From Saprospira grandis (lineage in GTDB: Bacteria; Bacteroidota; Bacteroidia; Chitinophagales; Saprospiraceae), in contig NZ_CP110854.1 of assembly GCF_027594745.1 (NCBI RefSeq), positions 1,244,241 to 1,308,240 on the forward strand: 64,000 nucleotides of DNA. Reading direction: 5' to 3'. Below the pieces are notes generated by a model. That model searched no databases and was not told the origin of the DNA. It was given only the letters and a program-made list of their open reading frames with translations. A program made the position numbers and the translations under genes. Of this stretch, positions 21,333 to 46,190 are shown in pieces. How positions within the stretch are numbered: position 1 is the stretch's first letter; each line of letters opens with the position of its first letter.

Positions 21333-21347
21333 GGGGAAGGGGGGGGC

Positions 21348-21569: not shown

Positions 21570-21641
21570 AAAATTTCTGATTTAGTGGTTTCTCTCTCAA
21601 TTTAATAAAAAAAGGCTTCTCAAGGAAGCCTTTTTTTATTC

Positions 21642-26297: not shown

Positions 26298-26382
26298 AAT
26301 AAAAAGCGAATTAGTAATTATTAAACTCGAACTCATTTTGGAGACGGCAAGCCTCTGGGCTTGGCAAAGGAGTGGATAAAGC

Positions 26383-31414: not shown

Positions 31415-31555
31415 TTTTTGGGGCCTCCTGCCTTCGGCAGGCGCTACGTTTCGCAGCTCGCAAGTCTGCTCGGCCCTGCGCGGGCTTCGCCCGCTAGGTC
31501 TGGCCTACGGCCACTGCTGCACATCGCTAGGCCTGCGGCCCTTCGGGCCTGTAGA
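31415..31555. repeat. GC-rich intergenic repeat family copy (type 2, forward)
   Basis: TTTTGGGGCCTCCTGCCTTCGGCAGGCGCTACGTTTCGCAGCTCGCAAGTCTGCTCGGCCCTGCG...GGTCTGGCCTACGGCCACTGCTGCACATCGCTAGGCC. Confidence 0.8.
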
Positions 31556-31634
31556 AGACAGCGCCCAAGCTAGGGCCAAAAAAAGAGCCACTGAATATAT
31601 ATTCAGTGGCTCTTTTCTATAGGACAACAAAGCC

Positions 31635-32427
31635 TTATTCATCGGCATCATCGTCTAAATTCATGGCTGTAGATTGGCCCTTAGGCATCATACTCGTATC
31701 ATCCCAGAGCTTAGATACCCAAAAGCGAAGCACCGCCTGTTTCTTTTCTTCTTTATCCAGATAACCATAATTTCCAGCTGTTTTTGCTTCTAGTCGGAAA
31801 TTAGTCTCTGAGCCCGTCCAACGGAAGCTGATTTTCCGCCAAAGCAAACCATAACTCGCCTTTACATGCTTGACCACTCCTTGGCCATAAGTAGCCGTGG
31901 CAATTGCATAAGTAAGGGCATATTTAGCTCTTTTCTTTCGGCCAGCAGCATGGGCAATAATTTCAAAAGCCTGAACGCCCTCCAAATCTGAAACGATAGG
32001 GTGCCAGCGGCCATCGGCGGGGATTTCTCCTTGAATAAAAGTGCCGACTCGACCATTTGCTCCAAGCATGCCATTCACCTCTAGCTTAAAGTTGGGCAAG
32101 CTGGTCCCAATACCTACATTCCCCCCCCTTTCGCAAGAAAAGAAGGGTTTCATTTTCGCTATCATTAAAGCTGAGCCCTTCACTATGTGGAGTGGGATTC
32201 ATCGAGATGCTAAAAGAGGCCTGAGGGTCTCGGATGCTTTCATAGAAGCTCATCAAGCGCTTATTTGGGCCTTGAGTGGCCAACATAAGGCCCTCAGTCG
32301 AACTTTGAGAGAAACCGTCATCTACCTTATTGACGGTAGAGTCGATAAGGTCGGCAAAGTTCACTTCTGTGGGGACCATGCCCCTTTTGAACAGATTTTT
32401 GAGTGTGCTACGCGTGAGTAAAGCCAT
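31635..32427 (-). pseudogene. Tail-fibre-like protein of the eCIS cluster, split by a frameshift in a G8 (plus-strand C8) homopolymer
   Basis: ORFs 32086..32427 (N-terminal part) and 31635..32183 (C-terminal part) overlap in different frames around the C8 run at 32121..32128. The downstream frame carries the phage tail-fibre repeat-like motif GNVGIGTSLPNFKLEVNG. Joined length is ~260 aa. Confidence 0.5.
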
Positions 32428-32564
32428 TGAGTTGGATACTTTAACTTAAATGGAAAGGCGGGTGAATGCCATCAAATTTAAAAAATTGTTTGGAAAAGGC
32501 GCAGTCAAAACGATTTTATAATTTAGATTTTCTTAATAACGCCTTTATTTATTGTTTTTTAGGG

Positions 32565-32740
32565 CTTGGCGAGGCGGCGCAGCCGCCTGCGAGCGCAGCG
32601 AGCCATGGCCCAGCGCTGCGGAGTGGGTGGCCGAAGGCCAGACCGAAGCGCTGCAAGCGCTGAAGGGCCGAGCGAATAGCGAGCCCCGCAGCATAGCGGC
32701 GGCCGCCCCGCTATAAAGGGCGGCCGCGGGCCCCAAAAAA
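32565..32740. repeat. GC-rich intergenic repeat family copy (reverse) inside the eCIS operon
   Basis: GAGGCGGCGCAGCCGCC...CAGCGCTGCGGAGTGGGTGGCCGAAGGCCAGACC...GGGCCGAGCGAATAGCGAGCCCCGCAGCATAGCGGCGGCCGCCCCGCTATAAAGGGCGGCCGCGGGCCCCAAAAAA. Confidence 0.8.
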
Positions 32741-32816
32741 TGGACCTTGTAGCACTAAAAAAGGCCCAAAAGTGCGTGGACTTCTGGGCCTGATCAGTTA
32801 TGTTTTACACGATTGT

Positions 32817-35800
32817 TTAATCGTCTAGTTCACGCTCTTCGGTCATTACAAAGTCGCCATCGAGCATCATATTGTCTAGGCCAGCTTTGGCAGGAGACTG
32901 GAAAGCCACCTCGTCGAGGAGATAAAGTGGGTTTTTCTCGAAAGGAATGAGGACCGACCAAGGCGTGGTAGCCTTGAGCAAGGGCGAAGAAGAGGTATCG
33001 ATAGCCGTATCGCCTACATCGAAGCCTTCGCCACTGGGGAAGACCTGAACGGCAGAAAACTTAGTGACAAAATCGACATACTCTCTTTTTTCGATAAAGC
33101 TAAGGAGAACATCCTTGGCGATAGTACCGCCCAGTTCGAGTTCTCTTTGGCCGCCATACATCCAGGGGCAGACAAAGTCCATAATATCCTTATTCAACTT
33201 TTTGAGGAAGGTACCGTTGTTCATGCCTTTTTGGAAGCGCAAACCGCCGGCCACTTTTACTCTTTCGTAGATAGGATTACGGAGTTTGATCTCGACAAAA
33301 GGCGAAGCTAGGGGGATGAGATAATCTCGGATAGCCTCTAGGGTAGCGTTATTCACCATGGGGAGGCGGCCTTGGTGAGAGGCCTTAATTCTGGGTACGA
33401 CCACGAGGACCACCTGTCCTTTTTCGACAAACTCTTCATTGCCGATATGCGTTACGCATTTCACTTGGAAAATATCGGGAAACTGGTCGAGGACCAGGCG
33501 TTCATAATCCCAAGCAGAGACGGCTCTACCTTTATGGCGGAGGCGTTCGCTACTGCGGGTATAGAATTCCTTTTTATTTTCGCCGGGTCGGCCTTCAAAA
33601 GAGCCAAAAGGTTGTTGGACCGATCGGATTTGGACCAATGGGCTGGCCAAATTTTTAATTTTATTGGCGGGCAGTTTTTCTTCCAAGTGTTTCACCTCCT
33701 CTTCGGGGTTTCCGGCCCAGGTAGCCGAAATGGCTTGGGTAGAGAGGTGTAAAACGGTAGGCATACGGCTAGCGTCGCCACGGAGAGAGGCGCGCAGCCA
33801 GAACTTTCCTTTATCGAAGATGGTATTATTATCTGAAATATCTCTGGGGATATCGAAGGTGATAATACCGGAGTTATTAAAGAAATTGGTGGTATCGTTT
33901 AGGATTTGGGTTTGAGAAAACTCCTTCCATTCGTCATTAACGAGGAAGCTCCAAACGATTTCGGCCTGTTTGGCTTCGCTACTACGGCCCTTCATCATAG
34001 AGAAATAGTCTTGATTCTCTTTGAGTTCGAAGTAGATAGAGAGCGTAGCGGGTGGGTTAAAATCCTTGATTCCGAGGAAGAGGTAAGCATCTTCATCGTA
34101 GGCGGGCAACAAAGTGGGTTTAATTGGGCGGCCTTGAGAGAAATTGCGCATCACACCGAAGGGGTGGATATGGAACAGCTCTTCGACCACACCGCCAGAG
34201 CTATTTACGGTACCGATAGACATGATATTGACTTGGGCCGTAGCGGTATAGTCAATGCTCATATTTCGGATAACGGGAGTAAAAGGTTGGTTGGGGAGTT
34301 TCTTTTTCTCCTTAGTTTTGGGGTCTGCATTATGGGCAGCCACATCGGCGTAAAGATTTGGAAACTCATCGTGGGCGAAAGCAGAGGGCGGGTTAGTCAA
34401 TTCCATGCGGAAATAGCCGGTTTGCGTTTCGCTGGTATAAGTATCAATCTGTTTGAGATTGGCCTGTGGTTCTAGGTCAAAGAGTTTGAGATCGATATTA
34501 TCTAGGCAAGTAGCATTACTAATGCCATGCACATTATCTTCATCTTGTTCGAAGAGGAAATACTCCTTGACATTATTCTTATTTTCGGGGAAGAACTCTC
34601 CTTCTCGGAGGGCCGACAATTTGATTCGGTAATCTTCATTGCGGATACCGAGGCCATACTCTCGATAATAGCCACGGAGGCCTTTTGTATTATCGGGTAG
34701 ATTATGCCAATTGATATTGATTTTGAGGTTGGTCAATTCCTTTTTGAAAAGCTCGGTTTTTCCGATAAGGAGATAAGAGCCTAGCTTAGGCGTGGGGCCA
34801 AAAGCTTGGAAAGGGATACTGCCTTCTAGTTGGCCGTATTCATTACTTAGGTTTAGGCGTTTGATTCCTTTGACCTCAACATCAATGTTAATGCGTTCTA
34901 GGCTTAGCTCTTTAAGGAAAGAGTAAGAATAGGTTACATTTTCATTTTGGTGAAGGACCTTCATCACGGGAAGGCTAGTATCGAAATCGGGGCCTAAGAC
35001 ATCGGCATTATAGCCCACGATAGCGGGGGCATTGGCGGATACGGTAGCGAGCAGGCTAAACTCGGGAATATTCCAGTTTTCTGGGGGAAGGAGTTCGCAG
35101 CTTTTAGCTTCGATCCAACCTTCTTCTCCAGAGAGGACTAATTTTAGGCTATTTTTAAAGACCTTAGAGAAGGCATCTTCTTTAGATAGGCCTTGATTTC
35201 GGCTAATATCCTTAATCAGAAGATTTAGGGTATACATAGAAGACTTATCGAATCGCATGCGCAACTTGATACTACGGTGGCCTTCTTCCATTTCGAGAAT
35301 AGGGGCGGCCATAGCCCAGCCTACTTCGGCATAGACCATTTGGCGTTCATCGGAAGCTTTTTCGAGTAATTCTTCTCCGAAGGCGGGCCATTCCTCTTCA
35401 TTATTGATAAAGCGTTTGCCTAGGCCATCTCTAGAGTTGGCTACAGGGGCGGCATACATATTTGTGATAAGGCGATAAGAGCTCCCGATACCGATTTTGG
35501 GGTTTTTGCTCACAAAAAGCGTCTTCACTGCATCCACTTTAGCTTGGTTCAGTTCGATGCCATAATCGGTTTTATAGCGGATGGGTTTACCATCTTCATC
35601 GACGCCAGCATCTAGAAGGGTGCCTGCGGGGAGGAAAAAGCTATCAATATGTTTGGCCAGGTTAAAATAGACATTTACCTGATCGGGTTGCAAGCCTCTT
35701 TCCTGCATTTTAAGCACATCGTAATAATAGAAATCGAGATGCTTTTCGGTGAGAGTATTGAGGTGGTCCTGATTATGTTTAAAGAGTTTCACGAAAGCGA

Positions 35801-36587
35801 TAAAGAGCGCCAAATCGGGGCGGTGATCATCTTTTTCTTTGAGTGATTTCTCTAGATATTTTGGTGCTTCTTGTACGATATAAGAGAGCACGCTATAGAA
35901 GGTCCGGAACTGTAGTCGGATCTTCTTGGTATAATCTTGAATTTTGAAGTTAGCTCGAGGGTCTTCTACTTCGATAGCGCGAGCAGAGAGCAACTTTTTG
36001 GAGGGGAACCAGATGCTATGAAAATGCTCTTCGATTTCGTTGGGGCTATAGATGCCTGTTTGGTGAAACTCGAGGAAGCGATCTTGTTCTAGGAGTTCGA
36101 TTAAGTTAGAAGAGAGTTGCTGTTTGATTGCGTTCTCTAATTCGTTCTCTAGTTCATCGGTATCGCCGGGTTGCAGCGTATTCATTTTGAGGGCATGCAC
36201 ATACCAGTCGTTAAACTGTTTGGCCATATCGAACACCTGCGTATAGAGGGCCTTAAGCGCATCTAGGCGGCCTGCGGTACGGGCGGCATTTTCTAGCTCG
36301 GTAATATATTTGGCGTGTTCCTGCTCAATTTTTTTAAGATCGGTAGCGATAATAGAGGCCAAGAAAACCGAGAGGTCATTGCGCAAAAAGCGCGACCAAT
36401 CTCCTGCGGGGGAGTTTGTTTGGTCATAAAACTGGACCATTTCGGCATATTTGGCAGAAAAGGCGAGGAGGTCACTAGTAGAGCGTTCATCTACCTTAAT
36501 ATATTCTGGGATGAGAGCTTTGAGCAATCGTTGGCTCTGCGTTACGCCATTCCAGGACAGGCTAGATTTATTCTTTTTGGTACTCAT
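32817..36587 (-). CDS. Large baseplate wedge protein (gp6/Baseplate_J-like; Afp11/Afp12-like, possibly fused)
   Basis: 1256 aa, directly downstream of the gp25-like gene. Size and position match the gp6/gp7-like baseplate proteins of phage-tail-like systems. No catalytic motifs. Assignment is by synteny and size only. Confidence 0.5.
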   Translation of the reverse strand: MSTKKNKSSLSWNGVTQSQRLLKALIPEYIKVDERSTSDLLAFSAKYAEMVQFYDQTNSPAGDWSRFLRNDLSVFLASIIATDLKKIEQEHAKYITELENAARTAGRLDALKALYTQVFDMAKQFNDWYVHALKMNTLQPGDTDELENELENAIKQQLSSNLIELLEQDRFLEFHQTGIYSPNEIEEHFHSIWFPSKKLLSARAIEVEDPRANFKIQDYTKKIRLQFRTFYSVLSYIVQEAPKYLEKSLKEKDDHRPDLALFIAFVKLFKHNQDHLNTLTEKHLDFYYYDVLKMQERGLQPDQVNVYFNLAKHIDSFFLPAGTLLDAGVDEDGKPIRYKTDYGIELNQAKVDAVKTLFVSKNPKIGIGSSYRLITNMYAAPVANSRDGLGKRFINNEEEWPAFGEELLEKASDERQMVYAEVGWAMAAPILEMEEGHRSIKLRMRFDKSSMYTLNLLIKDISRNQGLSKEDAFSKVFKNSLKLVLSGEEGWIEAKSCELLPPENWNIPEFSLLATVSANAPAIVGYNADVLGPDFDTSLPVMKVLHQNENVTYSYSFLKELSLERINIDVEVKGIKRLNLSNEYGQLEGSIPFQAFGPTPKLGSYLLIGKTELFKKELTNLKININWHNLPDNTKGLRGYYREYGLGIRNEDYRIKLSALREGEFFPENKNNVKEYFLFEQDEDNVHGISNATCLDNIDLKLFDLEPQANLKQIDTYTSETQTGYFRMELTNPPSAFAHDEFPNLYADVAAHNADPKTKEKKKLPNQPFTPVIRNMSIDYTATAQVNIMSIGTVNSSGGVVEELFHIHPFGVMRNFSQGRPIKPTLLPAYDEDAYLFLGIKDFNPPATLSIYFELKENQDYFSMMKGRSSEAKQAEIVWSFLVNDEWKEFSQTQILNDTTNFFNNSGIITFDIPRDISDNNTIFDKGKFWLRASLRGDASRMPTVLHLSTQAISATWAGNPEEEVKHLEEKLPANKIKNLASPLVQIRSVQQPFGSFEGRPGENKKEFYTRSSERLRHKGRAVSAWDYERLVLDQFPDIFQVKCVTHIGNEEFVEKGQVVLVVVPRIKASHQGRLPMVNNATLEAIRDYLIPLASPFVEIKLRNPIYERVKVAGGLRFQKGMNNGTFLKKLNKDIMDFVCPWMYGGQRELELGGTIAKDVLLSFIEKREYVDFVTKFSAVQVFPSGEGFDVGDTAIDTSSSPLLKATTPWSVLIPFEKNPLYLLDEVAFQSPAKAGLDNMMLDGDFVMTEERELDD

Positions 36588-36654
36588 GCTAAGGTGCGCT
36601 TAAGAGATGGTTATTGTTGTTCTGATAGTGATAGTAGTGGGGGTCTAAAGGAAA

Positions 36655-37071
36655 CTAGAGTTCGGTACCTTCTGCGAGATAGAAGGGATAGACCATATTA
36701 TTACGAGCATTCACGCCCTTAATTTCATAGACCACATTAACATTAACTCGGCCACGGAGCTGCTCGCTTTCGTCTACATCTACAGAGATGAGGCGGATAC
36801 GGGGTTCGTGGTAGAGAATAGCGGTAGTGATGAGATCTTGAATTCGAATTCGGGTAGCGTTATTGATACTTTGAAAAGCTTGGCTATGGATATCGCAACC
36901 ATAGCTAGGGTTCATGATTCGTTCGCCGGGGAGAGTAGAGAGAAGAATATTAAGGGATTCCTTAATATCTTCTTCATCTTGAGACATCACAATTCCGCGG
37001 GTAGAGTCGCTAAAGCGGGGCGGGAAGCTCCAGCCTGAGCCTAAAAATGATTTTTGGATATCGTCTGACAT
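36655..37071 (-). CDS. gp25-like baseplate wedge protein (GPW/gp25 family)
   Basis: 138 aa. N-terminal FLGSGWSFPPRF and overall size and composition typical of gp25/GPW lysozyme-fold baseplate proteins (Afp9/TssE-like). Confidence 0.7.
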   Translation of the reverse strand: MSDDIQKSFLGSGWSFPPRFSDSTRGIVMSQDEEDIKESLNILLSTLPGERIMNPSYGCDIHSQAFQSINNATRIRIQDLITTAILYHEPRIRLISVDVDESEQLRGRVNVNVVYEIKGVNARNNMVYPFYLAEGTEL

Positions 37072-37124
37072 GCTTAAAAATTTCTTATCGTCTAAAAATT
37101 GGGATCAACTATTTATCTTAAGTG

Positions 37125-37264
37125 CGGAGCGGGCAGTTGTATTGGCCTAGCGCTGCGGAAGGGGGGGCCGAAGGGCCAGACCGAAGCCCGCAGGGCTAAA
37201 GGGCCGAGCAGGCTTGCGAGCCCTGTAGCATAGCGCCGCAGCTTTGCTGCGGAGGCCCCAAAAA
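37125..37264. repeat. GC-rich intergenic repeat family copy (reverse) between the PAAR and gp25-like genes
   Basis: ..CTAGCGCTGCGGAAGGGGGGGCCGAAGGGCCAGACCGAAGCCCGCAGGGCTAAAGGGCCGAGCAGGCTTGCGAGCCCTGTAGCATAGCGCCGCAGCTTTGCTGCGGAGGCCCCAAAAA. Abuts the PAAR stop codon. Confidence 0.8.
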
Positions 37265-37555
37265 CTACCCAATCAATACAGTAGGAGCACCAGCAACTAC
37301 AGCACCGCCATGGCCACAAGAGTCGCCAATACGGGCAGCGGGTTTCCCCTCAATCATGACCGTTCCAGAGCCAGAGGCAATCGAATCGCCTGCGCAAGCA
37401 CAGACGGCAGAATCGCCAAGGCGGGCAGCAGGAATTCCGGTAACCATGACGGTACCGGCACCGCTAACAATGGGTCCACCCACATGAGGTGAAGGACCGG
37501 GGCAAACGGCGGGGCAAACGTGCATATCGCCAATTCGAGCAGAGGGCATTCCCAT
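37265..37555 (-). CDS. PAAR-repeat spike-tip protein
   Basis: 96 aa with three PAAR-like repeats (PSARIGDMHVCP, PAARLGDSAVCA, PAARIGDSCGHGG). Gly/Val-rich. Confidence 0.85.
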   Translation of the reverse strand: MGMPSARIGDMHVCPAVCPGPSPHVGGPIVSGAGTVMVTGIPAARLGDSAVCACAGDSIASGSGTVMIEGKPAARIGDSCGHGGAVVAGAPTVLIG

Positions 37556-37576
37556 AACTTATTGATTTTAATACTT

Positions 37577-39421
37577 TTAATTAATCTTTACTACACCACC
37601 TTTGACTTCGCAAAGTCCGCCCCCTTCCAATTTGGCCGAGGCAGAACCCTTGAGTTCCATAGTGGTAGAGCCTTCCCCTTTAACGGCTAGGGCCTTAATA
37701 GAGAAGTTGGCGACCGCCTCCATTTTGGTATCGGACTTTGATTTAGTCTCGATGTTAATGTCGGCCTCCATTTTAATATTTTTCTTGGCTTTAACGACAA
37801 AGTCGCCATCGGTCTCGAAGAGAATCCCGTTCTTATCCATCAACATTTTGTTGACGTTTACGGGGTCTTCAATCAGGATCGTATCTTCATCATCATTGAG
37901 CTCGATAATCATCTTATCTTCCGTAATGATCTTGACAATATTTTTGCCTGGATCATCCTGAAGTTCAATCCGGGTTTTCCCCTTATTGATAGAAATCGCC
38001 TTAAAGATGTTGGGGTCTGCGGGAATATGCGTTTCCTCGGTCGTGATTCCTCTGCCGCTACTATACATAGAGCCCAGAATGACCGGATAGGTGGGGTCTG
38101 AGTTGAAAAAGCCAACCACCACCTCATCCCCTACTTCGGGATAGAAAACAAAACCGCAATCTTCGGTAGCATAATAATGCGCCATACGGGCCCAAACGCC
38201 CTCTCCAGCTTGGTCATCAATAATAGGGATATTGATGAGGACGCGGAATTCGCCATCGGGATCCGAGTCAATTTGCTTGACCACCCCATGCTGAAGCCCA
38301 TGAATAGCGGGCAACATTCCGCCTGCGGGCCGAGAGCTAGCCGTAATATTAGCTTCCATATAAGGTTGGGGATCCATGCCCAAGCCCACCTCGGTCAACC
38401 ATTGGCCTTTCATGACCGTATGGCGAATTCGGCTAACATAAGCATCGCCAACAAAGCGAGTTCCAAAGCCAAATAGCTCAATCGTTTTACCCAATTCCGC
38501 CTTAGCAGAACCATAAAATTTGAGGCTCCCTCGGATGCGAGAAAGATGTCCTCTTTGGTAAACCGAATCGGCCCAAGACTGGATCACATCCTTAGTGACC
38601 GGCGGAGTTGTTTTGACCGTATTCTTCGGTTCAATCACTGCGCCCAGCTTTCCAGGATCCAAATCGCCCTGAGCATTTACAGAAGGTTTGGCCCCATCGG
38701 CCGTAACAATGGCCAAATCGGTATGGCTCCAACAAGTAGCGCCCACCTCCGTATATTGGTAAGTCGAATCGATATTCATATCCATCTCCACCAAATCATT
38801 TCCATAAGAAATGACCAGTTCAGACTTTTCGCTCACCGTAGGTTTCTTAATCGTAATTTCGCCATCATTGATAATGGTCACCAAGCTATTCACATCGGCC
38901 CGAGACTGAATAAAATCCCAGTCCGTACTCCAATACTGAATCAGTTTTTTGTGTGTGCCCGAAGTCCCTTCCACATCTGCAGAAAGTCCAGCTTCACTCA
39001 CCACAGCCGAAATAATATCCGAGTCGGCCTGATCATAAAACACCTTGTTTTTACGGCCAACCGTTAGCTTGAGCGCCTCATCCTTACACTTGAGTACCAA
39101 AGCGGCACCACTATAATTAGACTGCTTAATACCGTGCTCCACCAAGATCCCCTTATAAAGAGTTTCCTCCTTACCTGGGCCATATCCCGCTTTCACTTCT
39201 ACCTCCTTGCCCGGCTCAAACATGGCATCTTCAGAGGTAGGAAACTTTTGCTCCCGAGTATCTCCGTCCTTGAGTGTAATACGAGCATAAGGAATTTTAT
39301 TCAGCTCCTTAACAATATCTACACTCTCCACGACCATTGTTTTAGGCACCTCAGTTCCATCAATCAGTACAAGTACCGACAGATAGCCTTCGCCCATGCC
39401 TTTTACTGGAGAATCTGCCAT
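37577..39421 (-). CDS. VgrG / gp27-gp5-like central spike (baseplate hub) protein
   Basis: 614 aa. Central block GFGTRFVGDAYVSRIRHTVMKGQWLTEVGLGMD and YYATEDCGFVFYPEVGDEVVVGFFNSDPTYPVILGSMYS resemble phage late-control D / gp5 OB regions. C-terminal beta-helix-like repeats follow (KMEADINIETKSKSDTKMEAVANFSIKALAVKGEGSTTMELKGSASAKLEGGGLCEVKGGVVKIN). Immediately upstream of PAAR. Confidence 0.7.
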   Translation of the reverse strand: MADSPVKGMGEGYLSVLVLIDGTEVPKTMVVESVDIVKELNKIPYARITLKDGDTREQKFPTSEDAMFEPGKEVEVKAGYGPGKEETLYKGILVEHGIKQSNYSGAALVLKCKDEALKLTVGRKNKVFYDQADSDIISAVVSEAGLSADVEGTSGTHKKLIQYWSTDWDFIQSRADVNSLVTIINDGEITIKKPTVSEKSELVISYGNDLVEMDMNIDSTYQYTEVGATCWSHTDLAIVTADGAKPSVNAQGDLDPGKLGAVIEPKNTVKTTPPVTKDVIQSWADSVYQRGHLSRIRGSLKFYGSAKAELGKTIELFGFGTRFVGDAYVSRIRHTVMKGQWLTEVGLGMDPQPYMEANITASSRPAGGMLPAIHGLQHGVVKQIDSDPDGEFRVLINIPIIDDQAGEGVWARMAHYYATEDCGFVFYPEVGDEVVVGFFNSDPTYPVILGSMYSSGRGITTEETHIPADPNIFKAISINKGKTRIELQDDPGKNIVKIITEDKMIIELNDDEDTILIEDPVNVNKMLMDKNGILFETDGDFVVKAKKNIKMEADINIETKSKSDTKMEAVANFSIKALAVKGEGSTTMELKGSASAKLEGGGLCEVKGGVVKIN

Positions 39422-39457
39422 TTTTCTTTATTTATCTTCTAGTTAATTGAGTCAATT

Positions 39458-39646
39458 CTATCGATTCATTTTGTACTCCCAAGCTTCCATTGCTCGGCGC
39501 ACCGCTTCCTGAATCAAGATTTCTTTATCTTTTTCGGTCATGCCTTTCCCCTGTTCCTTTCCATCTCCTTTTCCCTGACCTTTGCCCCCACCATTTTCTG
39601 CATTCACATTAGTGTTGACATTCATTTCTTTTACTGTTACTGCCAT
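39458..39646 (-). CDS. Small Gly/Lys-rich hypothetical protein (62 aa) inside the eCIS operon
   Basis: MAVTVKEMNVNTNVNAENGGGKGQGKGDGKEQGKGMTEKDKEILIQEAVRRAMEAWEYKMNR. Sits 36 bp upstream of the spike gene. Coding status uncertain. Confidence 0.3.
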   Translation of the reverse strand: MAVTVKEMNVNTNVNAENGGGKGQGKGDGKEQGKGMTEKDKEILIQEAVRRAMEAWEYKMNR

Positions 39647-39681
39647 AAGCTCTATATTTTTTTGCTGTTTTTAAGCCAGTT

Positions 39682-39815
39682 TTTTGGGGGCCTGCGGGCT
39701 TCGCCCGCCGCTATGTTGCAGGGCTCGCAAGCCTGCTCGGCCCTTCGCAAAAGCTTCGCTTTTGCTCGGTCTGGCCCTGCGGGCCACCCTTCCACAGCGC
39801 TAGGCCAAAAACGGC
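39682..39815. repeat. GC-rich intergenic repeat family copy (type 2, forward) inside the eCIS operon
   Basis: TTTTGGGGGCCTGCGGGCTTCGCCCGCCGCTATGTTGCAGGGCTCGCAAGCCTGCTCGGCCCTTCGC...GGTCTGGCCCTGCGGGCCACCCTTCCACAGCGCTAGGCC. Ends 5 bp before the stop of gene 39821..40510. Confidence 0.8.
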
Positions 39816-39820
39816 TTCGC

Positions 39821-40510
39821 TTAATGGGCCACCACCTTAGAGAAAGCGTAAGAAAGTTCAATTTCTTGGACCAGCAAATCCTCTGAAGTAGAGTTGAGCG
39901 AGCTCAAGCTCATTTTAGAGGGATAAGCAAAATTAAACTCCATAGAAATCAAAATTTGCGGCTTTCCAGATTTTGTCAAGTTTGGGTGCATTACATTTAC
40001 CTGTACCCCCTTGAGCTTAATCTGCTCATTCCAAGAAGCCATGGCCTCAAAACTTTCTTCACACCATTTGGTCCAAGGATCCGAGCTTTTAATGACATCT
40101 GGGCGCACCAAGCGCTTTAGCGTAATGGCCGAGTTTTTCATTTTATCGGGTAAGTCAATTGGATAATTATATCCCCCCTCATTATACGTCTTCTTTCCCT
40201 CCAAACCAATCTCCAAACCACTCACCTCAATAAAGGAGTTATGAATATTGGTATCGCCAGGAGTAGGTAAGCCATTGGCTCCGCCACCGTCTATCTTATT
40301 GATTGCCTTTTTCATCATTCCTCCAATCATTCCTCCTACAAAGGTATCTACAGCCCCTTTAGCAACTCCCGCCAAAAAGCTATTCCCTTCATGCTTCTGA
40401 TCATACATCTGCACATCAAAATAAAAGGCAGGAATGGGCGAGGTCGTTTTTTCGTCCTCTTTCATGACTTCATCTAAGAAGCGCTCAAATGGGCTAATGG
40501 TATTATTCAT
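39821..40510 (-). CDS. Tube-fold protein with C-terminal extension (tube initiator / Afp7- or Afp5-like)
   Basis: 229 aa. N-terminal PIPAFYFDVQMYD and internal NSAITLKRL echo the tube-protein motifs (KFYFSIEID / SNITLKKGTF) of the two downstream tube genes, with ~80 extra C-terminal residues. Confidence 0.45.
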   Translation of the reverse strand: MNNTISPFERFLDEVMKEDEKTTSPIPAFYFDVQMYDQKHEGNSFLAGVAKGAVDTFVGGMIGGMMKKAINKIDGGGANGLPTPGDTNIHNSFIEVSGLEIGLEGKKTYNEGGYNYPIDLPDKMKNSAITLKRLVRPDVIKSSDPWTKWCEESFEAMASWNEQIKLKGVQVNVMHPNLTKSGKPQILISMEFNFAYPSKMSLSSLNSTSEDLLVQEIELSYAFSKVVAH

Positions 40511-40570
40511 ATCTTATTGGGATTATCTACAGCGATTGGTCTAAAAGTTAATGTGCTAAGCGGTTTTATC

Positions 40571-41029
40571 CTAACCGCCCACCTCCGTTTCAAAATGACG
40601 GAAGGCAAACTCCATTTCTTCTACTGCCACCTCATTTTCAGATTCGGCATCAAAGTTAGAGGGAATATATTTTGTGATAAAGGCCTTTTCGAGTCGCCAG
40701 ATAAACTGCGTCTCCATATTGTGGTCCAAAAGGTGGATTTCAATAGTTCGGCGAGAAGTATACTCTCGACTCACCGCCACCTGGTCAAACAATCGGCTCA
40801 TTTGATCATCTTGAGAAAACGATCCTTTTTTAAGGGTAATGCGGCTGTATTGTAACATACCAGGCATGCGCTCCTTTCCAAAAAAGGGAGAATTACCATC
40901 TCGGTACTCAATCACCCCAATTTCTGCCTCCAAGCCATCTACAGTTTGAAAAGACATTTCAATTGGACCAATAAACACCCGAAAGCTAAAGCGCGTTAGG
41001 GGCCAAGTCATTGTGGAATCTGAACTCAT
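40571..41029 (-). CDS. Tail tube protein (T4 gp19-like / Afp1-like), copy 2
   Basis: 152 aa. MSSDSTMTWPLTRFSFRVFIGP...MLQYSRITLKKGSF...IEIHLLDHNMETQFIWRLEKAFITKYIPSNFDAESENEVAVEEMEF is collinear with copy 1. Confidence 0.75.
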   Translation of the reverse strand: MSSDSTMTWPLTRFSFRVFIGPIEMSFQTVDGLEAEIGVIEYRDGNSPFFGKERMPGMLQYSRITLKKGSFSQDDQMSRLFDQVAVSREYTSRRTIEIHLLDHNMETQFIWRLEKAFITKYIPSNFDAESENEVAVEEMEFAFRHFETEVGG

Positions 41030-41277
41030 AACATCTATTTTTAAGAAAGCGGCTACCCAAGTTAACTAGCTAAATACTAGGGCCAAGGCAAAGTTTTTTT
41101 GGGCCTATGCCCTGAAAATAGCGCTTAGCGATACTGCCTTTCATTATCAAGCAGTTAAGACCTGCTATAAGTTAAGCGCTTTAGGCTACTAAATTAAAGA
41201 AAAAATCTTAATAGCACAAAAAAAACCTAGCAGGTTTTTACCTGCCAGGTTTATTTTATTGCTAAGCTAAATTAAGC

Positions 41278-41733
41278 TTATGCAGTTTCCATAGTCCACT
41301 CTTCGCAGCAGAACTCAAGTTCTTCGATAGCGACTTCAGAGTCAGCTTCTGCGTCAAAAGGAGTAGGAGTAAACTTAGTAACGAAAGCGTTGAGTAGCGT
41401 CCAAGTGAAAACGATCTCATCAGCTTCATTCATCAAGTGAATGATTACAGTGCGGCGCTCAGTGTGTTGGTGGTCAACTGAAAGCTCTTTGTACCACTGA
41501 TAGAGGTAGTCATCGCTCTGGAAAGTACCCTTCTTCAAGGTGATGTTGCTATAAGACATCAAACCGGGACGCTTAGTCTTGTAGAAGTTGGTAGAGTTAC
41601 CTGCGCGGTACTCCATTACAGAAATCTCAGTCTCAAGACCTTCGATTGTCTGGAAGCCCAAAGTGTTGGGGATATTGTCAATCTCGATAGAGAAATAAAA
41701 CTTAGGCAGTGGCCATTCTGTTGTTGCAGACAT
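41278..41733 (-). CDS. Tail tube protein (T4 gp19-like / Afp1/Hcp-like), copy 1
   Basis: 151 aa. MSATTEWPLPKFYFSIEIDN...GLMSYSNITLKKGTF...VIIHLMNEADEIVFTWTLLNAFVTKFTPTPFDAEADSEVAIEELEF is characteristic of eCIS/T4 tube proteins. Confidence 0.8.
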   Translation of the reverse strand: MSATTEWPLPKFYFSIEIDNIPNTLGFQTIEGLETEISVMEYRAGNSTNFYKTKRPGLMSYSNITLKKGTFQSDDYLYQWYKELSVDHQHTERRTVIIHLMNEADEIVFTWTLLNAFVTKFTPTPFDAEADSEVAIEELEFCCEEWTMETA

Positions 41734-41845
41734 GATATATGGCGTTTAAAAGTATGATCTAAATTTAAAATGTTGATGCTCTCTCGTTTGAGCCCAAGAG
41801 AAAGGCTAAATGCTTTAGATGTCATCTCTAAGTTAAGCGCAAAGC

Positions 41846-43339
41846 TTACTCAGCACCACCGGGCATTTTTTGCTGGAAGGTGATAACGATGAATTCAGCA
41901 GGACGAGAGATAGCTACTTTCACAGAAACTTTCATGTAACCATCTAGGATATCCTGAGGAGTCATAGTTGTACCCAAACCAACCTCAACTTGGAAAGCCT
42001 GATCTTCAGTAGCACCTACCAAAGCACCTGCTTGCCACTGGCTACGCAAGAAAGAACCAATCATTGATTTAACTGCGATCCAAGTGTTAGCGTCATTGGG
42101 ACGGAATACGAAGGGCTCACAAGCGAACTTCACAGACTGCTCCAACATGATCATAGTACGACGTACGTTGATGTAGCGCCAGTCTTGGCTGTTACCGTCT
42201 AGCGTACGAGCACCCCATACCAAAGTACCTTTTCCAACGAAAGGACGGATAGCGTTGATTGCTTTACCGCTCAAAGGCAAGTTCAAGTCTTCTTGCTCAG
42301 TAGCAGAAATGTTCACAGTAGGTCCAGTTACAGAAGAAACTGATACGTTAGCAGGAGCTTTGAATACACCTACAGTGCTATCTACCAAAGAGTATAGACC
42401 AGCTACAGCGCCAGAAGGAGGCAATACGTTCAACATATCACGCATTTGACCCAATACATCATTGTATACAGGGCTTACAGCCTTCATGATGTTGTGTACA
42501 GCAGTTACGTTAGCATCAGCGTCAGCCATCTTAGCGATTTCAGCTTTGATCAACTCACCTTTTTCAGCTTTAACGAAACCAGCAGCTACGTTGTCATCTA
42601 CTTCTTTGTTAAGCAGTTCAACGAAACCTTCTAGGTTAGCAACGTTAGTGTAGTCAAACTCATCAGCTTGAACAACAGTAGCTTTCAACCAAGGGTAGTA
42701 AGCTGCACCGAAGTCTAGGAAGTTGTTGCCATAAGCCTCACGAGCGCGAGTTACAACATCATCATCTAGCATGCTGCGAGATTCGTTACCGTTCCATACG
42801 TCAAGGATAGCGAAGCGGCTGCGAGTATCAGCACCACAGTGCTTCAACATAGCTTGCTGTACAGTAGCACAGTCACCTTCTTCCAAAGAGATAGCATCGG
42901 GAACTACAAGCAAAGTAGGCTCTTGCTCCTTCAACAAAGCAGTGATACCACCGCCGTTCTCAGCACCCACTAGGGTCTTGGGAGAAACGTCGTCGTTGTA
43001 TCCACCAACAGAAACGATGTAGCAAGTTCCACCGCCGTTAGCGTAGAACATTTGAAGGCTACGGAACAACATGTAGTTACCGCCATCAACAGAAACGGTG
43101 TAGTTGTCGCCTTCAGCATCAACGTTGAAAGTAGTTTTGGGAGCACCACCGAAATAAGATAGGTACTCAACCAAAGAAGTAATGCGCATTGGCGTGTTGG
43201 TCAAGTCGCGCTTACCAGCAGCGGCTTTCTCAGTGTGGCCAATGAAAGCAGGGATAGCAGTTCCTACTGCTACAACAGAATTCGAAAAGGCGCTTTTTTC
43301 TTCGATATAAACGCCTGGTGTTGCATACTGTTTTGCCAT
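41846..43339 (-). CDS. Contractile tail sheath protein
   Basis: 497 aa. N-terminus MAKQYATPGVYIEEKSAF...VGTAIPAFIGHTEKA is the canonical sheath start (PGVYIEE, AIPAFIG). Sits immediately upstream of the tube genes. Confidence 0.85.
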   Translation of the reverse strand: MAKQYATPGVYIEEKSAFSNSVVAVGTAIPAFIGHTEKAAAGKRDLTNTPMRITSLVEYLSYFGGAPKTTFNVDAEGDNYTVSVDGGNYMLFRSLQMFYANGGGTCYIVSVGGYNDDVSPKTLVGAENGGGITALLKEQEPTLLVVPDAISLEEGDCATVQQAMLKHCGADTRSRFAILDVWNGNESRSMLDDDVVTRAREAYGNNFLDFGAAYYPWLKATVVQADEFDYTNVANLEGFVELLNKEVDDNVAAGFVKAEKGELIKAEIAKMADADANVTAVHNIMKAVSPVYNDVLGQMRDMLNVLPPSGAVAGLYSLVDSTVGVFKAPANVSVSSVTGPTVNISATEQEDLNLPLSGKAINAIRPFVGKGTLVWGARTLDGNSQDWRYINVRRTMIMLEQSVKFACEPFVFRPNDANTWIAVKSMIGSFLRSQWQAGALVGATEDQAFQVEVGLGTTMTPQDILDGYMKVSVKVAISRPAEFIVITFQQKMPGGAE

Positions 43340-43394
43340 GATTTAATTTATTTTGAAAAGTTTAATTGATTTACAAATTTATTTTGTCATCTGA

Positions 43395-44522
43395 TTACAA
43401 ATATACAATTATTTCGGAAAATACACCATCCTCAACGTTAAAATCTGTTTTTAATATTGATTTTGCTGAATGATTGGGTAAATCTGTAATCCATTCGATT
43501 CCATTTTTGCCTCTTTTGGTCCGTAACTTAAAGCGACTCAGCTGTTTTTCCTTAAAAGGAACAGGCTCTGAAGTTTTGACCAAAACGGCCAGTTCGCCAG
43601 AAGGCATAAGTACCTCCTCGGCCTCTTCAAAGTCTACTGTCTCGCCAGCTCGACCATTATCGTAGGCCTCATGTCCTTTGTGCTGCTTATCCTCAGTCAT
43701 TTCTACTATATAGTAATGCCAAGGTAAAGCCCTAGCTGGAAAATGGATATTATACTCTCTTTTGGGCAACAACTTTCCCTGCTCATCAAAAAAGCGGTAA
43801 GGGCTGTCATCCTCCTTATCTATATAAATATCCACCACTCCCCAAATTCCGGCAGTTCCCTCAGGAGCCAAATAAAAAGTATATTCTTCCAAACCATCTA
43901 GCTGCAAAATATACTTTCCCGCTGGGGCATCAGGCATGACCACATCTACATGGGCATTTTCACCTTCCTGCTCCAAAAAGAAATAAGACTGGCCCAACTC
44001 ATCTACTACCTCGATTTCCGCATCCTCCTCTTCATCATCAAATTCGTAGCGGAAAACAGGCCCTTCAAGCGGTAAGCGATCCATCTCAGAAACCAACTCA
44101 TCATTAGACAAATTGCCCTCCTCATCTTCAATCTTATCTTCGGCCCGATTCGTAAAGTGATAAATATAGTCACCAAACTCATAAGGGAGGCCCGTATAGT
44201 TAAGGAAGAAAGCATCTTCTACCTTCATCCAAAAACTCAACTTTAAAGGTTTTTCCAAACTTTCTAAAGCAGGCCCTCCAGAAACTGTCTCGCCATAACC
44301 AATCAGCAAATTATTGCCCTCAAAGGCCGTTTTAAGCTGTGTTTGCTTTAGGCGAAAAACCGTATCGGAAGTAGGACTAAGAACTACATCTTTACAGATC
44401 TGCTCATCAAAGTAATCGTGCAGTATCGCTATGTTTAATAGCTGATTGTAGCGAGTTTGAATGTTCAGCAGCATATGATGCTCCATCGGATTCCGTCGCC
44501 TGCTAAATTTACGTCTCTTCAT
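43395..44522 (-). CDS. Acidic hypothetical protein (375 aa) of the eCIS cluster
   Basis: Basic N-terminus MKRRKFSRRRNP, then D/E-rich segments (YEFDDEEEDAEIEVVDELGQSYFFLEQEGENAHVD). No recognisable family. Lies between the cap-like and sheath genes. Confidence 0.5.
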   Translation of the reverse strand: MKRRKFSRRRNPMEHHMLLNIQTRYNQLLNIAILHDYFDEQICKDVVLSPTSDTVFRLKQTQLKTAFEGNNLLIGYGETVSGGPALESLEKPLKLSFWMKVEDAFFLNYTGLPYEFGDYIYHFTNRAEDKIEDEEGNLSNDELVSEMDRLPLEGPVFRYEFDDEEEDAEIEVVDELGQSYFFLEQEGENAHVDVVMPDAPAGKYILQLDGLEEYTFYLAPEGTAGIWGVVDIYIDKEDDSPYRFFDEQGKLLPKREYNIHFPARALPWHYYIVEMTEDKQHKGHEAYDNGRAGETVDFEEAEEVLMPSGELAVLVKTSEPVPFKEKQLSRFKLRTKRGKNGIEWITDLPNHSAKSILKTDFNVEDGVFSEIIVYL

Positions 44523-44689
44523 TAAGCTCTTCTGCTTTAAGTCCCTTAAAATTAGAGAATTTAATTTTGGTCTGCAAAGTTTATTCGCAGTTTTTTTTCA
44601 TTTTTTTTAATAAAAGCTAAAATTTACGTTGACTTAACATTTTTCGTAGATTCAGCTAATATTATTTTGCCATTAGTTAAGCGACAAAG

Positions 44690-44948
44690 CCCAACTACAG
44701 CCGCCCCCATTTGGCCTAGCGATCTGTAGGGGTGGCCAAAGGCCAGACCGAAGCGCGCAGCGCTGACAACAAGGCTGAAAGCCGCAGTTCGATGACCGAA
44801 GGGAATAACGGCCGAGCAACCCGACCAACGGGAGCCGACGCAGCGAAGCAAGTAACAACGAGCCCCGACAACCAGCCTCGAAGAGGCGCCAGTTCGACGA
44901 CCGAGGGGAGTAAACGTAGCGCCTGCCGAAGGCAGGAGGCCCCAAACC
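44690..44948. repeat. Long, divergent copy of the GC-rich repeat family (reverse) with an internal direct repeat, inside the eCIS operon
   Basis: CCTAGCGATCTGTAGGGGTGGCCAAAGGCCAGACCGAAGCGCGCAGCGCTG..., then a ~130-bp insert carrying two similar segments (GCAGTTCGATGACCGAAGGGAATAACG / GCCAGTTCGACGACCGAGGGGAGTAAACG), and ending GCGCCTGCCGAAGGCAGGAGGCCCCAAA. Confidence 0.7.
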
Positions 44949-44951
44949 TTC

Positions 44952-45512
44952 CTAAATCTTGCGAATAGACGGAATTTCTGGCTCGGGCTTCTTATGCTCA
45001 ATCGGAATTGTTTTGAATCGATAGAGCACCGAAGGCAAATACTTGGCCCCTACCCCATTCCAAACATTAGAAATATCGCGAAAATCTGGCGATACCATTT
45101 CGGCAACCAAACGCGTAAGAGTGCCCGAAAGTGCCGGCGTATTTTGCTCATTAAAAACGCCTTGGCGGCTTTGAAAAAAAGCAATGACCGAGCTGACAAA
45201 CTTAAGGCCCTCCAGATAATTTTCATTGGTAAAATAGGCCGAAAACAACATATATATATTGACTTCAACCGGGGGCGTCACCTTGGTAAAATTCCCTCGC
45301 TTATTCGGTTGGTAAGTCGCCGTGCTGCTCTTATTCCGCTCAGCCTCAATGTTAATGATCGTCATCACGATCTTATCGGCCTCTTGCACCGCCATCGAGC
45401 CATCGGCATTTACCAAATGCGAAATGATAACCTTATCCTCTAAAATATTGTGTTTAGACTGCAAAAAGCGGTTGAGCTCGCCCACCACAGCCGTGACAAC
45501 TTTATCAATCAT
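44952..45512 (-). CDS. DUF4255 (Pvc16/Afp16 N-terminal domain)-like protein, putative tail terminator/cap
   Basis: 186 aa. MIDKVVTAVVGELNRFLQSK...ISHLVNADGSMAVQEADKIVMTIINIEAE..., with size, composition and operon position matching the DUF4255 component of eCIS loci. Assignment from memory of the family, not a search. Confidence 0.5.
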   Translation of the reverse strand: MIDKVVTAVVGELNRFLQSKHNILEDKVIISHLVNADGSMAVQEADKIVMTIINIEAERNKSSTATYQPNKRGNFTKVTPPVEVNIYMLFSAYFTNENYLEGLKFVSSVIAFFQSRQGVFNEQNTPALSGTLTRLVAEMVSPDFRDISNVWNGVGAKYLPSVLYRFKTIPIEHKKPEPEIPSIRKI

Positions 45513-45517
45513 AATCC

Positions 45518-45775
45518 TTATTCTTCTTCCTCCTCAGGTTCTGGCTGAGTCAGTGTTTTGATAGAAAGCGCAATAAAACGCATAATATAGATGCCCAAAA
45601 AGGAGGTAAAATAACCAATCAAGTACATCCAGAATACCCAGTTGCGCTCTATTTCACTCATATTCACCACCTCTCTGGTATAACCAAAGAACCAAAGGAA
45701 CACCACCGCCATGGGTAGCGAGACGATCAGGGCCACAATTAGCCAAATGAACTCTCTTGCGATTATTTTAAACAT
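45518..45775 (-). CDS. Small membrane protein (85 aa, 2 TM), first gene of the eCIS operon
   Basis: Two hydrophobic helices (FIWLIVALIVSLPMAVVFLWFFGY / WVFWMYLIGYFTSFLGIYIMRFIAL) and an acidic tail EPEEEEE. 5-bp gap to the DUF4255-like gene. Confidence 0.4.
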   Translation of the reverse strand: MFKIIAREFIWLIVALIVSLPMAVVFLWFFGYTREVVNMSEIERNWVFWMYLIGYFTSFLGIYIMRFIALSIKTLTQPEPEEEEE

Positions 45776-45826: not shown

Positions 45827-45990
45827 TTTTTGGGGCTGCCCCTCCTTTCAGTCGGGTCGGGCTGTGCCGCAGCTCGCAGGTCTGCTCGGCCCTGCGCTTT
45901 TTTCGCTTCGCTCAAAAAGCTGGGTCTGGCCTTCGGCCACTGCTATCCATCCCTCAGCCTGCGGCGGCTTCGCCGCCTGCTTGCCGCAAA
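45827..45990. repeat. GC-rich intergenic repeat family copy (type 1, forward)
   Basis: TTTTGGGGCTGCCCCTCCTTTCAGTCGGGTCGGGCTGTGCCGCAGCTCGCAGGTCTGCTCGGCCCTGCG...GGGTCTGGCCTTCGGCCACTGCTATCC...GCGGCGGCTTCGCCGCC. Confidence 0.8.
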
Positions 45991-45995
45991 AGGAC

Positions 45996-46184
45996 CTAAG
46001 GCAATCGTTTTTGTTGGCGCTTGAGTAGCATGCTCGCCACCCAAGTTAAGAGACCGCCCAAAATGGTTCCGACCAAGAAAGTGGCCACCCAATTATTGAA
46101 CAAGCCCAAATTATTGCCGATAAACAAAACAATTGTGGCAAAAAGGACCAAATAGAAAATCCGGAATGCGCCACTGTAAAACAT
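45996..46184 (-). CDS. Small membrane protein (62 aa, 2 TM)
   Basis: FRIFYLVLFATIVLFIGNNLGLF / LVGTILGGLLTWVASMLL. Stop of the upstream GH18-like gene is 6 bp away, suggesting co-transcription. Confidence 0.35.
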   Translation of the reverse strand: MFYSGAFRIFYLVLFATIVLFIGNNLGLFNNWVATFLVGTILGGLLTWVASMLLKRQQKRLP

Positions 46185-46190
46185 TACATC

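Follow-up and report, generated by a model that had tools for sequence, protein, structure and literature searches.

Main structural gene cluster of a probable envelope-anchored type VI secretion system subtype iv in Saprospira grandis

A 64,000-nucleotide stretch of the Saprospira grandis chromosome (RefSeq assembly GCF_027594745.1, contig NZ_CP110854.1, positions 1,244,241 to 1,308,240 of the forward strand), referred to here as the window, carries on its minus strand a group of genes for a phage-tail-like contractile injection system (CIS). The region is probably the main structural gene cluster of the S. grandis type VI secretion system subtype iv (T6SSiv), an envelope-anchored CIS of clade Ib. 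A preliminary description of this DNA had recognized a CIS rather than a prophage, and this is upheld. It had named an extracellular contractile injection system (eCIS), a T6SSiv and a tailocin side by side; the T6SSiv mode is retained here, and release as an eCIS or tailocin is less well supported. The link between rhapidosomes and CISs, the T6SSiv class and the presence of a CIS cluster in S. grandis are already published, so that the finding is a confirmation. Lien et al. stated that “Rhapidosomes are likely T6SSiv structures”, noted that S. grandis carries such a cluster and presented a tree in which S. grandis Cis2 groups with Aureispira Cis2 (Lien et al., 2024; 10.1101/2024.01.29.577165). 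The rhapidosome connection is also in print in Furusawa et al. (2005), as cited in Lien et al. (2024). The earlier proposal that a Saprospiraceae source would make the locus a candidate for rhapidosome production thus fits both the origin of the window and the literature.

The twelve minus-strand open reading frames (ORFs) of the preliminary description all exist, with the reservation that 31635-32427, taken there for one tail-fibre-like gene, consists of two overlapping ORFs joined across a +1 frameshift. Coordinates and family matches are collected in Table 1. The sheath gave the strongest structural matches: a search of the PDB returned the sheaths of SalCIS (9r9h, E 1.6e-155), AlgoCIS (2e-107) and tCIS (All3325, 2e-95), and the R-pyocin sheath at only 1.7e-4. 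The sheath, the two gp19/Hcp-like tube proteins, the DUF4255-like cap, the VgrG-like spike, the PAAR tip and the gp25-like wedge were all placed by Pfam in the families proposed for them, and the spike also scored 154.9 bits against the NCBIfam model TIGR01646 (VgrG), above its cut-off of 121.8 bits. The 1256-aa protein had no Pfam match. Its suggested place in the baseplate was borne out by the Cis11 chains of three solved CISs (E ≤ 1e-109), namely All3317 (5e-122), Alg11 (5e-120) and SalCis11 (1e-109), and by further matches to Pvc11 and Afp11. Its identity to Cis11 of other Saprospiraceae, Aureispira among them, is 52-55%; in relatives the protein forms a cage.

Some of the earlier assignments had to be revised. 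The 229-aa protein, described as an initiator-like third tube protein with a C-terminal extension, does have the tube fold, while the extension is N-terminal; matches to the Cis5 chains 9rce_I of SalCIS (1e-11), 7aeb_Y of AlgoCIS and All3323 point to the tube adaptor Cis5 rather than an initiator. The NCBIfam model CIS5_fam agrees at E 3e-7, which is below that model's cut-off. The acidic 375-aa protein had been held in reserve as an unassigned effector candidate. It is now assigned to Cis16b, since a profile of 35 orthologues matches All3326 (the tCIS cap, 7b5i; 3e-34), the AlgoCIS “cap adaptor protein” 7adz_1A (1.5e-20) and “SalCis16b - cap” 9r9n_C (1.7e-20). Cis16b is the second cap protein that separates clade Ib from the Afp/PVC systems (Ejaz et al., 2026, PMC13266070; Weiss et al., 2022, PMC8894136), and the two-protein cap, Cis16a (DUF4255) with Cis16b, is present in the window. 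The 62-aa DUF5908 gene is called in all S. grandis strains, and its position and family suggest a Cis6-like protein; SalCis6 is the plug of the spike lumen in SalCIS (Ejaz et al., 2026). No effector gene is evident in the window, as had been said of the operon.

The clade Ib traits present are the Cis2 sheath, the gp19 tube with Cis5, the VgrG-like spike, PAAR, gp25, Cis11 (the cage from homology) and the two-protein cap. By these sequence matches the locus groups with SalCIS, the Anabaena tCIS and AlgoCIS as a clade Ib CIS, and its gene order, as had been noticed, is the Bacteroidota/clade Ib arrangement and not that of Afp/PVC. The Afp/PVC systems (clade Ia) share the core parts, including sheath, tube, spike, PAAR, gp25, Afp11, Afp12 and the Afp16 cap. 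They differ in having three sheath paralogues, one cap protein and a cap gene that comes last, whereas the window has a single sheath gene, two cap proteins and the cap first. They also carry a tape measure, an ATPase and toxins in the operon, none of which is found near the window cluster.

The source strain is a fourth S. grandis-like strain. Over the locus its DNA is 97.8% identical to that of strain Lewin, 95% to DSM 2844, 85-90% to Saprospira sp. CCB-QB6 and 98% to a JGI metagenome contig. The sheath is 99% identical to that of DSM 2844 and 74-85% identical to those of other Saprospira and Aureispira loci. Within clade Ib the locus is the orthologue of the Aureispira T6SSiv cluster: Aureispira sp. 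CCB-QB1, of the same family Saprospiraceae, has the same gene block from the secreted protein sec359 through Cis13, and the loci of Aureispira metagenome-assembled genomes encode sheaths 74-79%, Cis11 about 54% and spikes about 57% identical to those of the window. Unlike the window, Aureispira carries a Cis7 gene (PF19266 and LysM) between PAAR and gp25, which is missing from all Saprospira loci, and the stop codon in GH18a and the frameshift in cis13 described below set the window strain apart. The Aureispira T6SSiv is almost always anchored in the inner membrane, kills by contact and is needed to kill Vibrio in ixotrophy; it is switched off by insertion sequence (IS) insertion in rich medium (Lien et al., 2024). 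Its effector candidates are DUF4157 proteins encoded elsewhere, and the killing may be partly mechanical (Lien et al., 2024). Pfam found no DUF4157 or metalloprotease match in the window.

The best solved-structure match of the sheath, SalCIS of Salmonella enterica subsp. salamae, showed no release (Ejaz et al., 2026). Homologues of its Cis16b, Cis5 and Cis11 are in the window, that of its Cis12 is in DSM 2844, and a Cis13-type anchor gene follows Cis11. SalCIS differs in being a single bidirectional operon of 18 ORFs. It includes Cis7, Cis12 and the ATPase Cis15, which the window lacks, and the HEXXH effectors SalCgo1/2, for which no candidate metalloprotease came up in the window with Pfam. 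The window, for its part, has a duplicated Cis20-like gene with a degenerate motif, and its host is a predatory member of the Bacteroidota rather than an enterobacterium. For the tCIS of Anabaena PCC 7120 (Weiss et al., 2022), locus tags indicate the gene order seen here (All3326 cap adaptor, All3325 sheath, All3323 Cis5, All3317 Cis11, All3316 Cis13, All3315 Cis12), and each of these proteins is matched by a window product or by the S. grandis Cis12. No homologue of the Cis19 crown was seen in the window, and the description of tCIS is without GH18-TM proteins. AlgoCIS of Algoriphagus machipongonensis (Xu et al., 2022, PMC8894135), also of clade Ib and from the Bacteroidota, shares the cap adaptor, sheath, Cis5 and Cis11 and, through DSM 2844, Cis12. 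It is released extracellularly, unlike the anchored mode proposed here, and has a sheath of 692 aa against 497 aa.

The cluster was not the self-contained 14-kb operon first described. When the proteins of the window were compared by tblastn with 86 related loci, the conserved block was found to run on upstream through five conserved genes, as far as ~51183. In Saprospira, Aureispira and other Saprospiraceae the order is constant: the secreted 346-aa protein, GH18b, GH18a, an 85-aa transmembrane (TM) protein, cap, Cis16b and sheath, followed by tube, tube, Cis5, (DUF5908), spike, PAAR, gp25, Cis11 and Cis13. Distant Bacteroidota relatives, with sheaths only ~50% identical, also carry GH18-TM, cap, Cis16b and Cis13 genes. 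The first gene of the block, sec359, also opens it in loci of Saprospira, Aureispira and further Saprospiraceae, where its product is 33-48% identical. It had no match in Pfam, NCBIfam or PHROGs, its profile found no PDB relative and a single-sequence AlphaFold2 model was unusable (pLDDT 34); the protein is a candidate periplasmic accessory component. The 85-aa protein tm85, correctly described as a small membrane protein with its two hydrophobic segments, keeps its place in the Saprospiraceae and in some more remote loci (30-82% identity) and matched no family in Pfam or NCBIfam.

GH18a and GH18b resemble SalCis20, which has a Sec signal, a SleL-like hydrolase domain and three C-terminal TM helices and was proposed, with SalCis13, to tether SalCIS to the inner membrane (Ejaz et al., 2026). 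This signal peptide-GH18-TM architecture is present twice in the window, as judged from the architecture and the shared SleL/YdhD homology, SalCis20 not being among the PDB matches listed. The GH18b profile matched YdhD (3cz8, 2e-27), SleL (4s3j) and YaaH (4s3k), Bacillus spore-cortex enzymes that are the nearest solved relatives of the GH18 domain; its TM segments come from a hydropathy scan. In the window, GH18a is interrupted by a TGA at 46191-46193 (codon 661), leaving 660 aa and an in-frame 62-aa ORF (45996-46184) with two TM helices. Codon 661 is Arg (CGN or AGA) in all 20 relatives compared and is CGA in Lewin, DSM 2844, CCB-QB6 and the metagenome contigs, in which the gene call spans 725 aa. 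Reading the stop as Arg would give the window protein three C-terminal TM helices, and the stop is predicted to remove the last two of them unless 45996-46184 is translated separately.

An Asp is expected before the catalytic Glu in GH18 chemistry. In Saprospiraceae the catalytic signature is DG[VI]EINFE (DGVEINFE in the window), with Asn in place of this Asp, and some Aureispira orthologues are without the catalytic Glu; distant Bacteroidota homologues keep D-x-E. Because the motif is degenerate, little hydrolase activity is predicted for GH18a and GH18b. Weak or no activity, with a structural or peptidoglycan-binding role, is more likely.

The tail-fibre-like gene did give fibre-like matches, and the protein is more specifically a Cis13 baseplate anchor. 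When one G is removed from a run of eight (32121-32128, minus strand, read directly from the DNA), the two ORFs join into a 263-aa protein, whose gene lies directly after cis11 in about 40 related loci. The N-terminal 40 residues of its profile matched the tCIS Cis13, All3316 (E 8.6e-6), the GNVGIGT region matched the Bdellovibrio trimeric fibre bd2133 (7.5e-9) and there were weak matches to AfpX13 and tail-fibre N-termini. Viral contigs scanned with the repaired protein contained no relatives. As in the SalCIS-like subgroup, the Cis13-type gene adjoins Cis11; SalCis13 has no solved chain and is likened to the window protein by position and type. All3316 is present in 18 chains, or six trimers, per baseplate; its N-terminus binds the baseplate, the protein tethers the particle to the membrane and its truncation yields free-floating particles (Weiss et al., 2022). 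The N-terminal baseplate-binding peptide is conserved in the window protein, while the C-terminal domain is different.

The frameshift site reads AAGGGGGGGGAAT in the window and AAGGGAGGTAAT in four other S. grandis-like sequences, which have the intact 263-aa ORF. The G8 tract replaces GGGAGGT of the other strains, a difference of two substitutions and one inserted G, all within 7 nt. It could be a real slippage-prone, possibly phase-variable tract, or an artefact of sequencing or assembly.

Table 1. Positions of the cluster components, hairpins, repeats and related genes in comparison loci; protein assignments follow the matches given
Feature	Position	Strand	Match or remark
sec359, secreted 346-aa protein, first gene of syntenic block	50143..51183	-	signal-peptide-like N-terminus
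GH18b, Cis20-like: signal peptide, GH18 (YdhD/SleL-like), C-terminal TM helices	48219..50105	-	Glyco_hydro_18 E 9e-27
GH18a, Cis20-like paralogue	45996..48173	-	Pfam GH18 E 1e-24; 725-aa ORF in relatives
tm85, 85 aa, two TM helices, acidic tail	45518..45775	-	directly upstream of cap gene
Cis16a cap / tail terminator	44952..45512	-	Pvc16_N (DUF4255) Pfam E 7.4e-32, full length
Cis16b cap adaptor, 375 aa, acidic	43395..44522	-	profile of 35 orthologues against solved structures; pI 4.6
Cis2 contractile sheath, single gene, 497 aa	41846..43339	-	Pfam Phage_sheath_1C E 7e-14; PDB matches
Cis1a inner tube	41278..41733	-	Phage_T4_gp19 E 3.5e-34
Cis1b second tube paralogue, short 152-aa form	40571..41029	-	Phage_T4_gp19 E 1.8e-27
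Cis5 inner-tube adaptor, 229 aa	39821..40510	-	gp19 fold residues 90-221, E 8e-13; N-terminal extension
DUF5908 protein, 62 aa, Cis6-like	39458..39646	-	DUF5908 E 5.8e-6, 27.5 bits against 27.7-bit cut-off
Cis8 VgrG-like spike (gp27/gp5)	37577..39421	-	Phage_base_V E 6e-20
Cis10 PAAR spike tip	37265..37555	-	PAAR_motif E 7e-25
Cis9 gp25-like baseplate wedge	36655..37071	-	GPW_gp25 E 8e-26
Cis11 extended baseplate protein, 1256 aa, gp6/Baseplate_J-like	32817..36587	-	PDB matches
Cis13 fibre-like baseplate anchor, 263 aa if intact	31635..32427	-	two overlapping ORFs, 32086-32427 and 31635-32183
Terminator-like hairpin, 13-bp stem and T run	41223..41252	-	between first and second tube genes
Terminator-like hairpin, 12-bp stem and T run	32762..32791	-	just after Cis11 stop; function inferred
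Perfect 14-bp palindromic hairpin, then T7	31578..31612	-	directly after Cis13 stop; read directly
GC-rich repeat copies	31415-31530, 32560-32740, 37130-37263, 39680-39810, 44729-44946, 45828-45996, 51386-51487, 51785-51913	both
Extended Cis1b examples in other Saprospira lineages	L003:12206-14653, L006, L007:9730-11331, L085:1154-2758		L numbers denote loci compared with the window
Orphan Cis12, housekeeping flanks	L087:10001-13159 (DSM 2844); L089:10001-13024 (Aureispira anguillae)

If these parts act as their counterparts do, the spike Cis8, the PAAR tip Cis10, Cis9, the Cis11 cage and a Cis12 encoded outside the window would form a baseplate, on which the Cis5/Cis1 tube would be nucleated inside the Cis2 sheath, the whole being closed by Cis16a and Cis16b. 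Six Cis13 trimers would dock on the baseplate by their N-termini and, together with the Cis20-like signal-peptide/GH18/TM proteins, would tether it to the cytoplasmic membrane and the cell wall. On contact with prey the sheath would contract, and the tube with its spike would be thrust from the cell into the adjacent bacterium, as in ixotrophic killing; contracted sheaths with expelled tubes, as seen in lysates, would be the historical “rhapidosomes”. What the sequence shows is the identity of the genes, their orthology and synteny with Aureispira and the lack of phage genes; that the particles are anchored, that they kill and that they are the rhapidosomes is inferred from Aureispira, SalCIS and Anabaena.

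Several observations weigh against this picture of an envelope-anchored T6SSiv. AlgoCIS belongs to clade Ib and yet is released, so that the clade alone leaves the mode of action unfixed. The Saprospira Cis13 has no TM helix, whereas that of Anabaena ends in one that inserts into the thylakoid membrane; a role of the Cis20-like proteins in cutting the cell wall is doubtful; and the two anchor genes GH18a and cis13 look disrupted in the window strain, in which, if the lesions are real, particles may assemble but be unanchored or non-functional. The machine had also been called almost complete, which does not hold, since Cis7, Cis12, Cis14 and Cis15 are not in the window. A profile hidden Markov model (HMM) of 41 Cis7 sequences found no Cis7 LysM tube initiator (PF19266) in the window or in any Saprospira locus; in distant relatives the gene comes after the tube genes. 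Database searches with a single Aureispira query and a 24-sequence profile, which had limited sensitivity and reached few candidates, returned Aureispira-like and a few distant sequences and none named S. grandis. FtsH is the only AAA protein in the window, so that no AAA+ ATPase Cis15 is present, and tblastn with the FtsH AAA domain, run over 81 related loci, gave no FtsH-like AAA gene closer than 10 kb to the sheath in any of them. No candidate for the tape measure Cis14 was found in the window.

The missing parts may be encoded at a distance, as is seen for Cis12. Some Saprospiraceae (L086) and most distant relatives have a Cis12 homologue after Cis13. In DSM 2844, Cis12 is an orphan gene, SapgrDRAFT_0933 (P0037), which matches Alg12 (4.5e-87), All3315 (1e-73) and SalCis12 (4e-41), and that of Aureispira anguillae is an orphan too. 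Because the order of the genes downstream of Cis12 in DSM 2844 (SpoU, UvrC, LplA, RsfS, FtsH) equals that at 57-64 kb of the window, Cis12 of the source strain would by synteny lie ~4.2 kb past the right end of the window on the same strand. Aureispira has a cis14 (Lien et al., 2024), and Cis14 and Cis15 are on this account probably encoded elsewhere in the genome; Cis7 may be as well. The machine is encoded in pieces, and the window holds the main piece only. A very small ORF precedes the orphan Cis12, of 60 aa in DSM 2844 and 38 aa in A. anguillae.

The particles could instead be a released eCIS or tailocin, freed by lysis and binding a target through the fibre-like protein to inject from outside, as Afp, PVC and AlgoCIS do. 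The homology to AlgoCIS in cap adaptor, Cis11 and sheath, the weak likeness of the Cis13 N-terminus to Afp13-type fibre N-termini and the historical sighting of rhapidosomes in lysates (Lien et al., 2024) are all in keeping with release. Against it are the contact-dependent, nearly always anchored Aureispira orthologue, the unreleased SalCIS, the absence of a lysis cassette from the window, the conserved membrane proteins of the cluster (two Cis20-like proteins and tm85) and a Cis13 that, at 263 aa, is short and has no recognisable receptor-binding domain. Release is thus unlikely. The envelope-anchored T6SSiv mode is better supported because those of its closest relatives that have been characterised are anchored in a membrane and because the cluster has a conserved Cis13/Cis20-like module. 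In the window no ORF had a match to the Pfam families of the TssJLM membrane complex or ClpV, as expected of subtype iv, the class of the Amoebophilus and Aureispira systems. A defective-prophage tail module, for which it can be said that all core proteins have phage-tail homologues, is so improbable as to be negligible. Capsid, portal, terminase, integrase, repressor and lysis genes were not found, and the scans of essentially all ORFs of at least 120 aa with Pfam or PHROGs gave no head, packaging, integration or lysis family anywhere in the 64 kb, as had been noted for the flanks; ten leftover ORFs without a family gave no phage-like match in PHROGs either. The neighbourhood consists of chromosomal housekeeping and Bacteroidota-typical genes (pdhA, FtsH, UvrC, lipoate ligase, type IX secretion system (T9SS) substrates, a SprB-repeat protein and a porin), the G+C content is even across the window and the same in the cluster as around it, the same block stands in the same order across genera, and the best structural matches, as the sheath illustrates, are to CISs and not to phages.

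A greater, though still lesser, chance attaches to the possibility that the locus is decaying or switched off in the window strain and yields inert cytoplasmic rods or nothing. The TGA in GH18a and the G8 frameshift in cis13 are unique to this strain, and exact-sequence look-ups of the 660-aa GH18a product and the 113-aa Cis13 N-fragment returned no record. In strain Lewin (CP002831.1; L092:1-1375) an IS3-type (rve) element breaks GH18a near residue 626, and in DSM 2844 (L090:15128-15943) a DDE_Tnp_1 IS lies between cis11 and cis13, just upstream of cis13. The IS switch of Aureispira, the Cis7 result for the Saprospira loci and the lack of Cis14 and Cis15 in the window point the same way. On the other side, the core structural ORFs are all full length, with 95-100% identity to those of other strains, and purifying selection is therefore evident; the frameshift site, with its clustered changes, looks like a possible sequencing artefact; and the missing genes may lie elsewhere, as Cis12 does in DSM 2844 and Aureispira.

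A speculative extension, which we consider unlikely, is that the membrane-anchor module of the T6SSiv has been damaged independently in the cultured S. grandis strains. The three cultured strains show three different events in this module, and in this small sample the metagenome-derived relatives are intact. If this is true and the lesions are real, the free “rhapidosomes” known classically from laboratory Saprospira would be T6SSiv particles without an anchor, and slippage or IS insertion in anchor genes would provide a second means of turning the system on and off, in addition to the IS switch of Aureispira.

One uninterrupted transcript across the cluster is not safe to assume, because strong terminator-like hairpins follow the first tube gene and Cis11, both inside the operon as first drawn, and a perfect palindrome with a T run follows Cis13. 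The hairpin at 41223-41252 is possibly an attenuator placed after the abundantly needed sheath and tube genes. That at 31578-31612 is likely to be the terminator that ends the cluster, and downstream of it lies pdhA on the opposite strand. A scan for sigma-70 promoters gave no excess of sites, with 32 against 27.9 ± 4.9 in shuffled sequence, and used a model that is not suited to Bacteroidota promoters.

GC-rich repeats of ~130-170 nt, with the core ...GCAGCTCGCAAGTCTGCTCGGCCC...GGTCTGGCC... in both orientations, fill most of the intergenic gaps of the cluster. They resemble repetitive extragenic palindromic (REP) elements or miniature inverted-repeat transposable elements (MITEs), and a copy follows cis11 in DSM 2844 too. 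A 125-aa ORF at 44624-45001 was rejected as a gene; it lies inside repeat copies, and no gene is called in the gap between cap and Cis16b in other strains. The other ORFs in intergenic gaps, which are rich in Ala, Arg and Gly, were discarded as spurious products of the repeats. In other Saprospira lineages, the gp19 domain of Cis1b is preceded by a fused N-terminal extension of ~380-660 aa built of repeated Gly/His-rich motifs.

A short way past cis13 and pdhA, the minus strand carries an nSTAND1-WD40 NTPase gene (26451-29810) and an OMP_b-brl_2 beta-barrel gene (24903-26336). Homologues of these adjoin this type of CIS in distant Bacteroidota, for example at L060:86-1934. In Sporocytophaga (L029/L030:1681-5750) the GH18-cap genes have an nSTAND-OMP pair (31% identity over 1082 aa) upstream of them on their own strand, with one small opposite-strand ORF between. 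Further nSTAND homologues occur in L027, L032, L033, L050, L051, L060, L076 and L077 and OMP homologues in L036, L046 and L060. The two genes might form a regulatory or outer-membrane accessory module, providing a trigger or the outer-membrane part of a trans-envelope complex. Immediately upstream of the cluster, 51981-54668 encodes a SprB-repeat protein of 895 aa with a C-terminal sorting domain of the T9SS type, whose position is kept in DSM 2844 and CCB-QB6 and not in other genera. Elsewhere in the window there are three DUF6976 paralogues in tandem, each of ~325 aa (E around 1e-115), and after them a MORN-repeat protein (18246-22358, minus strand), and two adjoining tRNA genes (11842-12033, minus strand), the only Rfam matches in the whole window.

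What is added to the published account is a corrected parts list for S. grandis, with the cap adaptor, Cis5 and Cis13 identified and the boundaries widened to take in two Cis20-like GH18 proteins and a secreted protein, together with the scattered organisation of the genes, the apparent absence of Cis7 from Saprospira clusters and the strain-specific lesions in the anchor genes. These provide leads for assigning proteins to the trans-envelope densities seen in Aureispira and bear on the choice of Saprospira strains. On the reading preferred here, the locus would encode the killing machine of a classical ixotrophic predator, which is almost certainly the 60-year-old “rhapidosome”.

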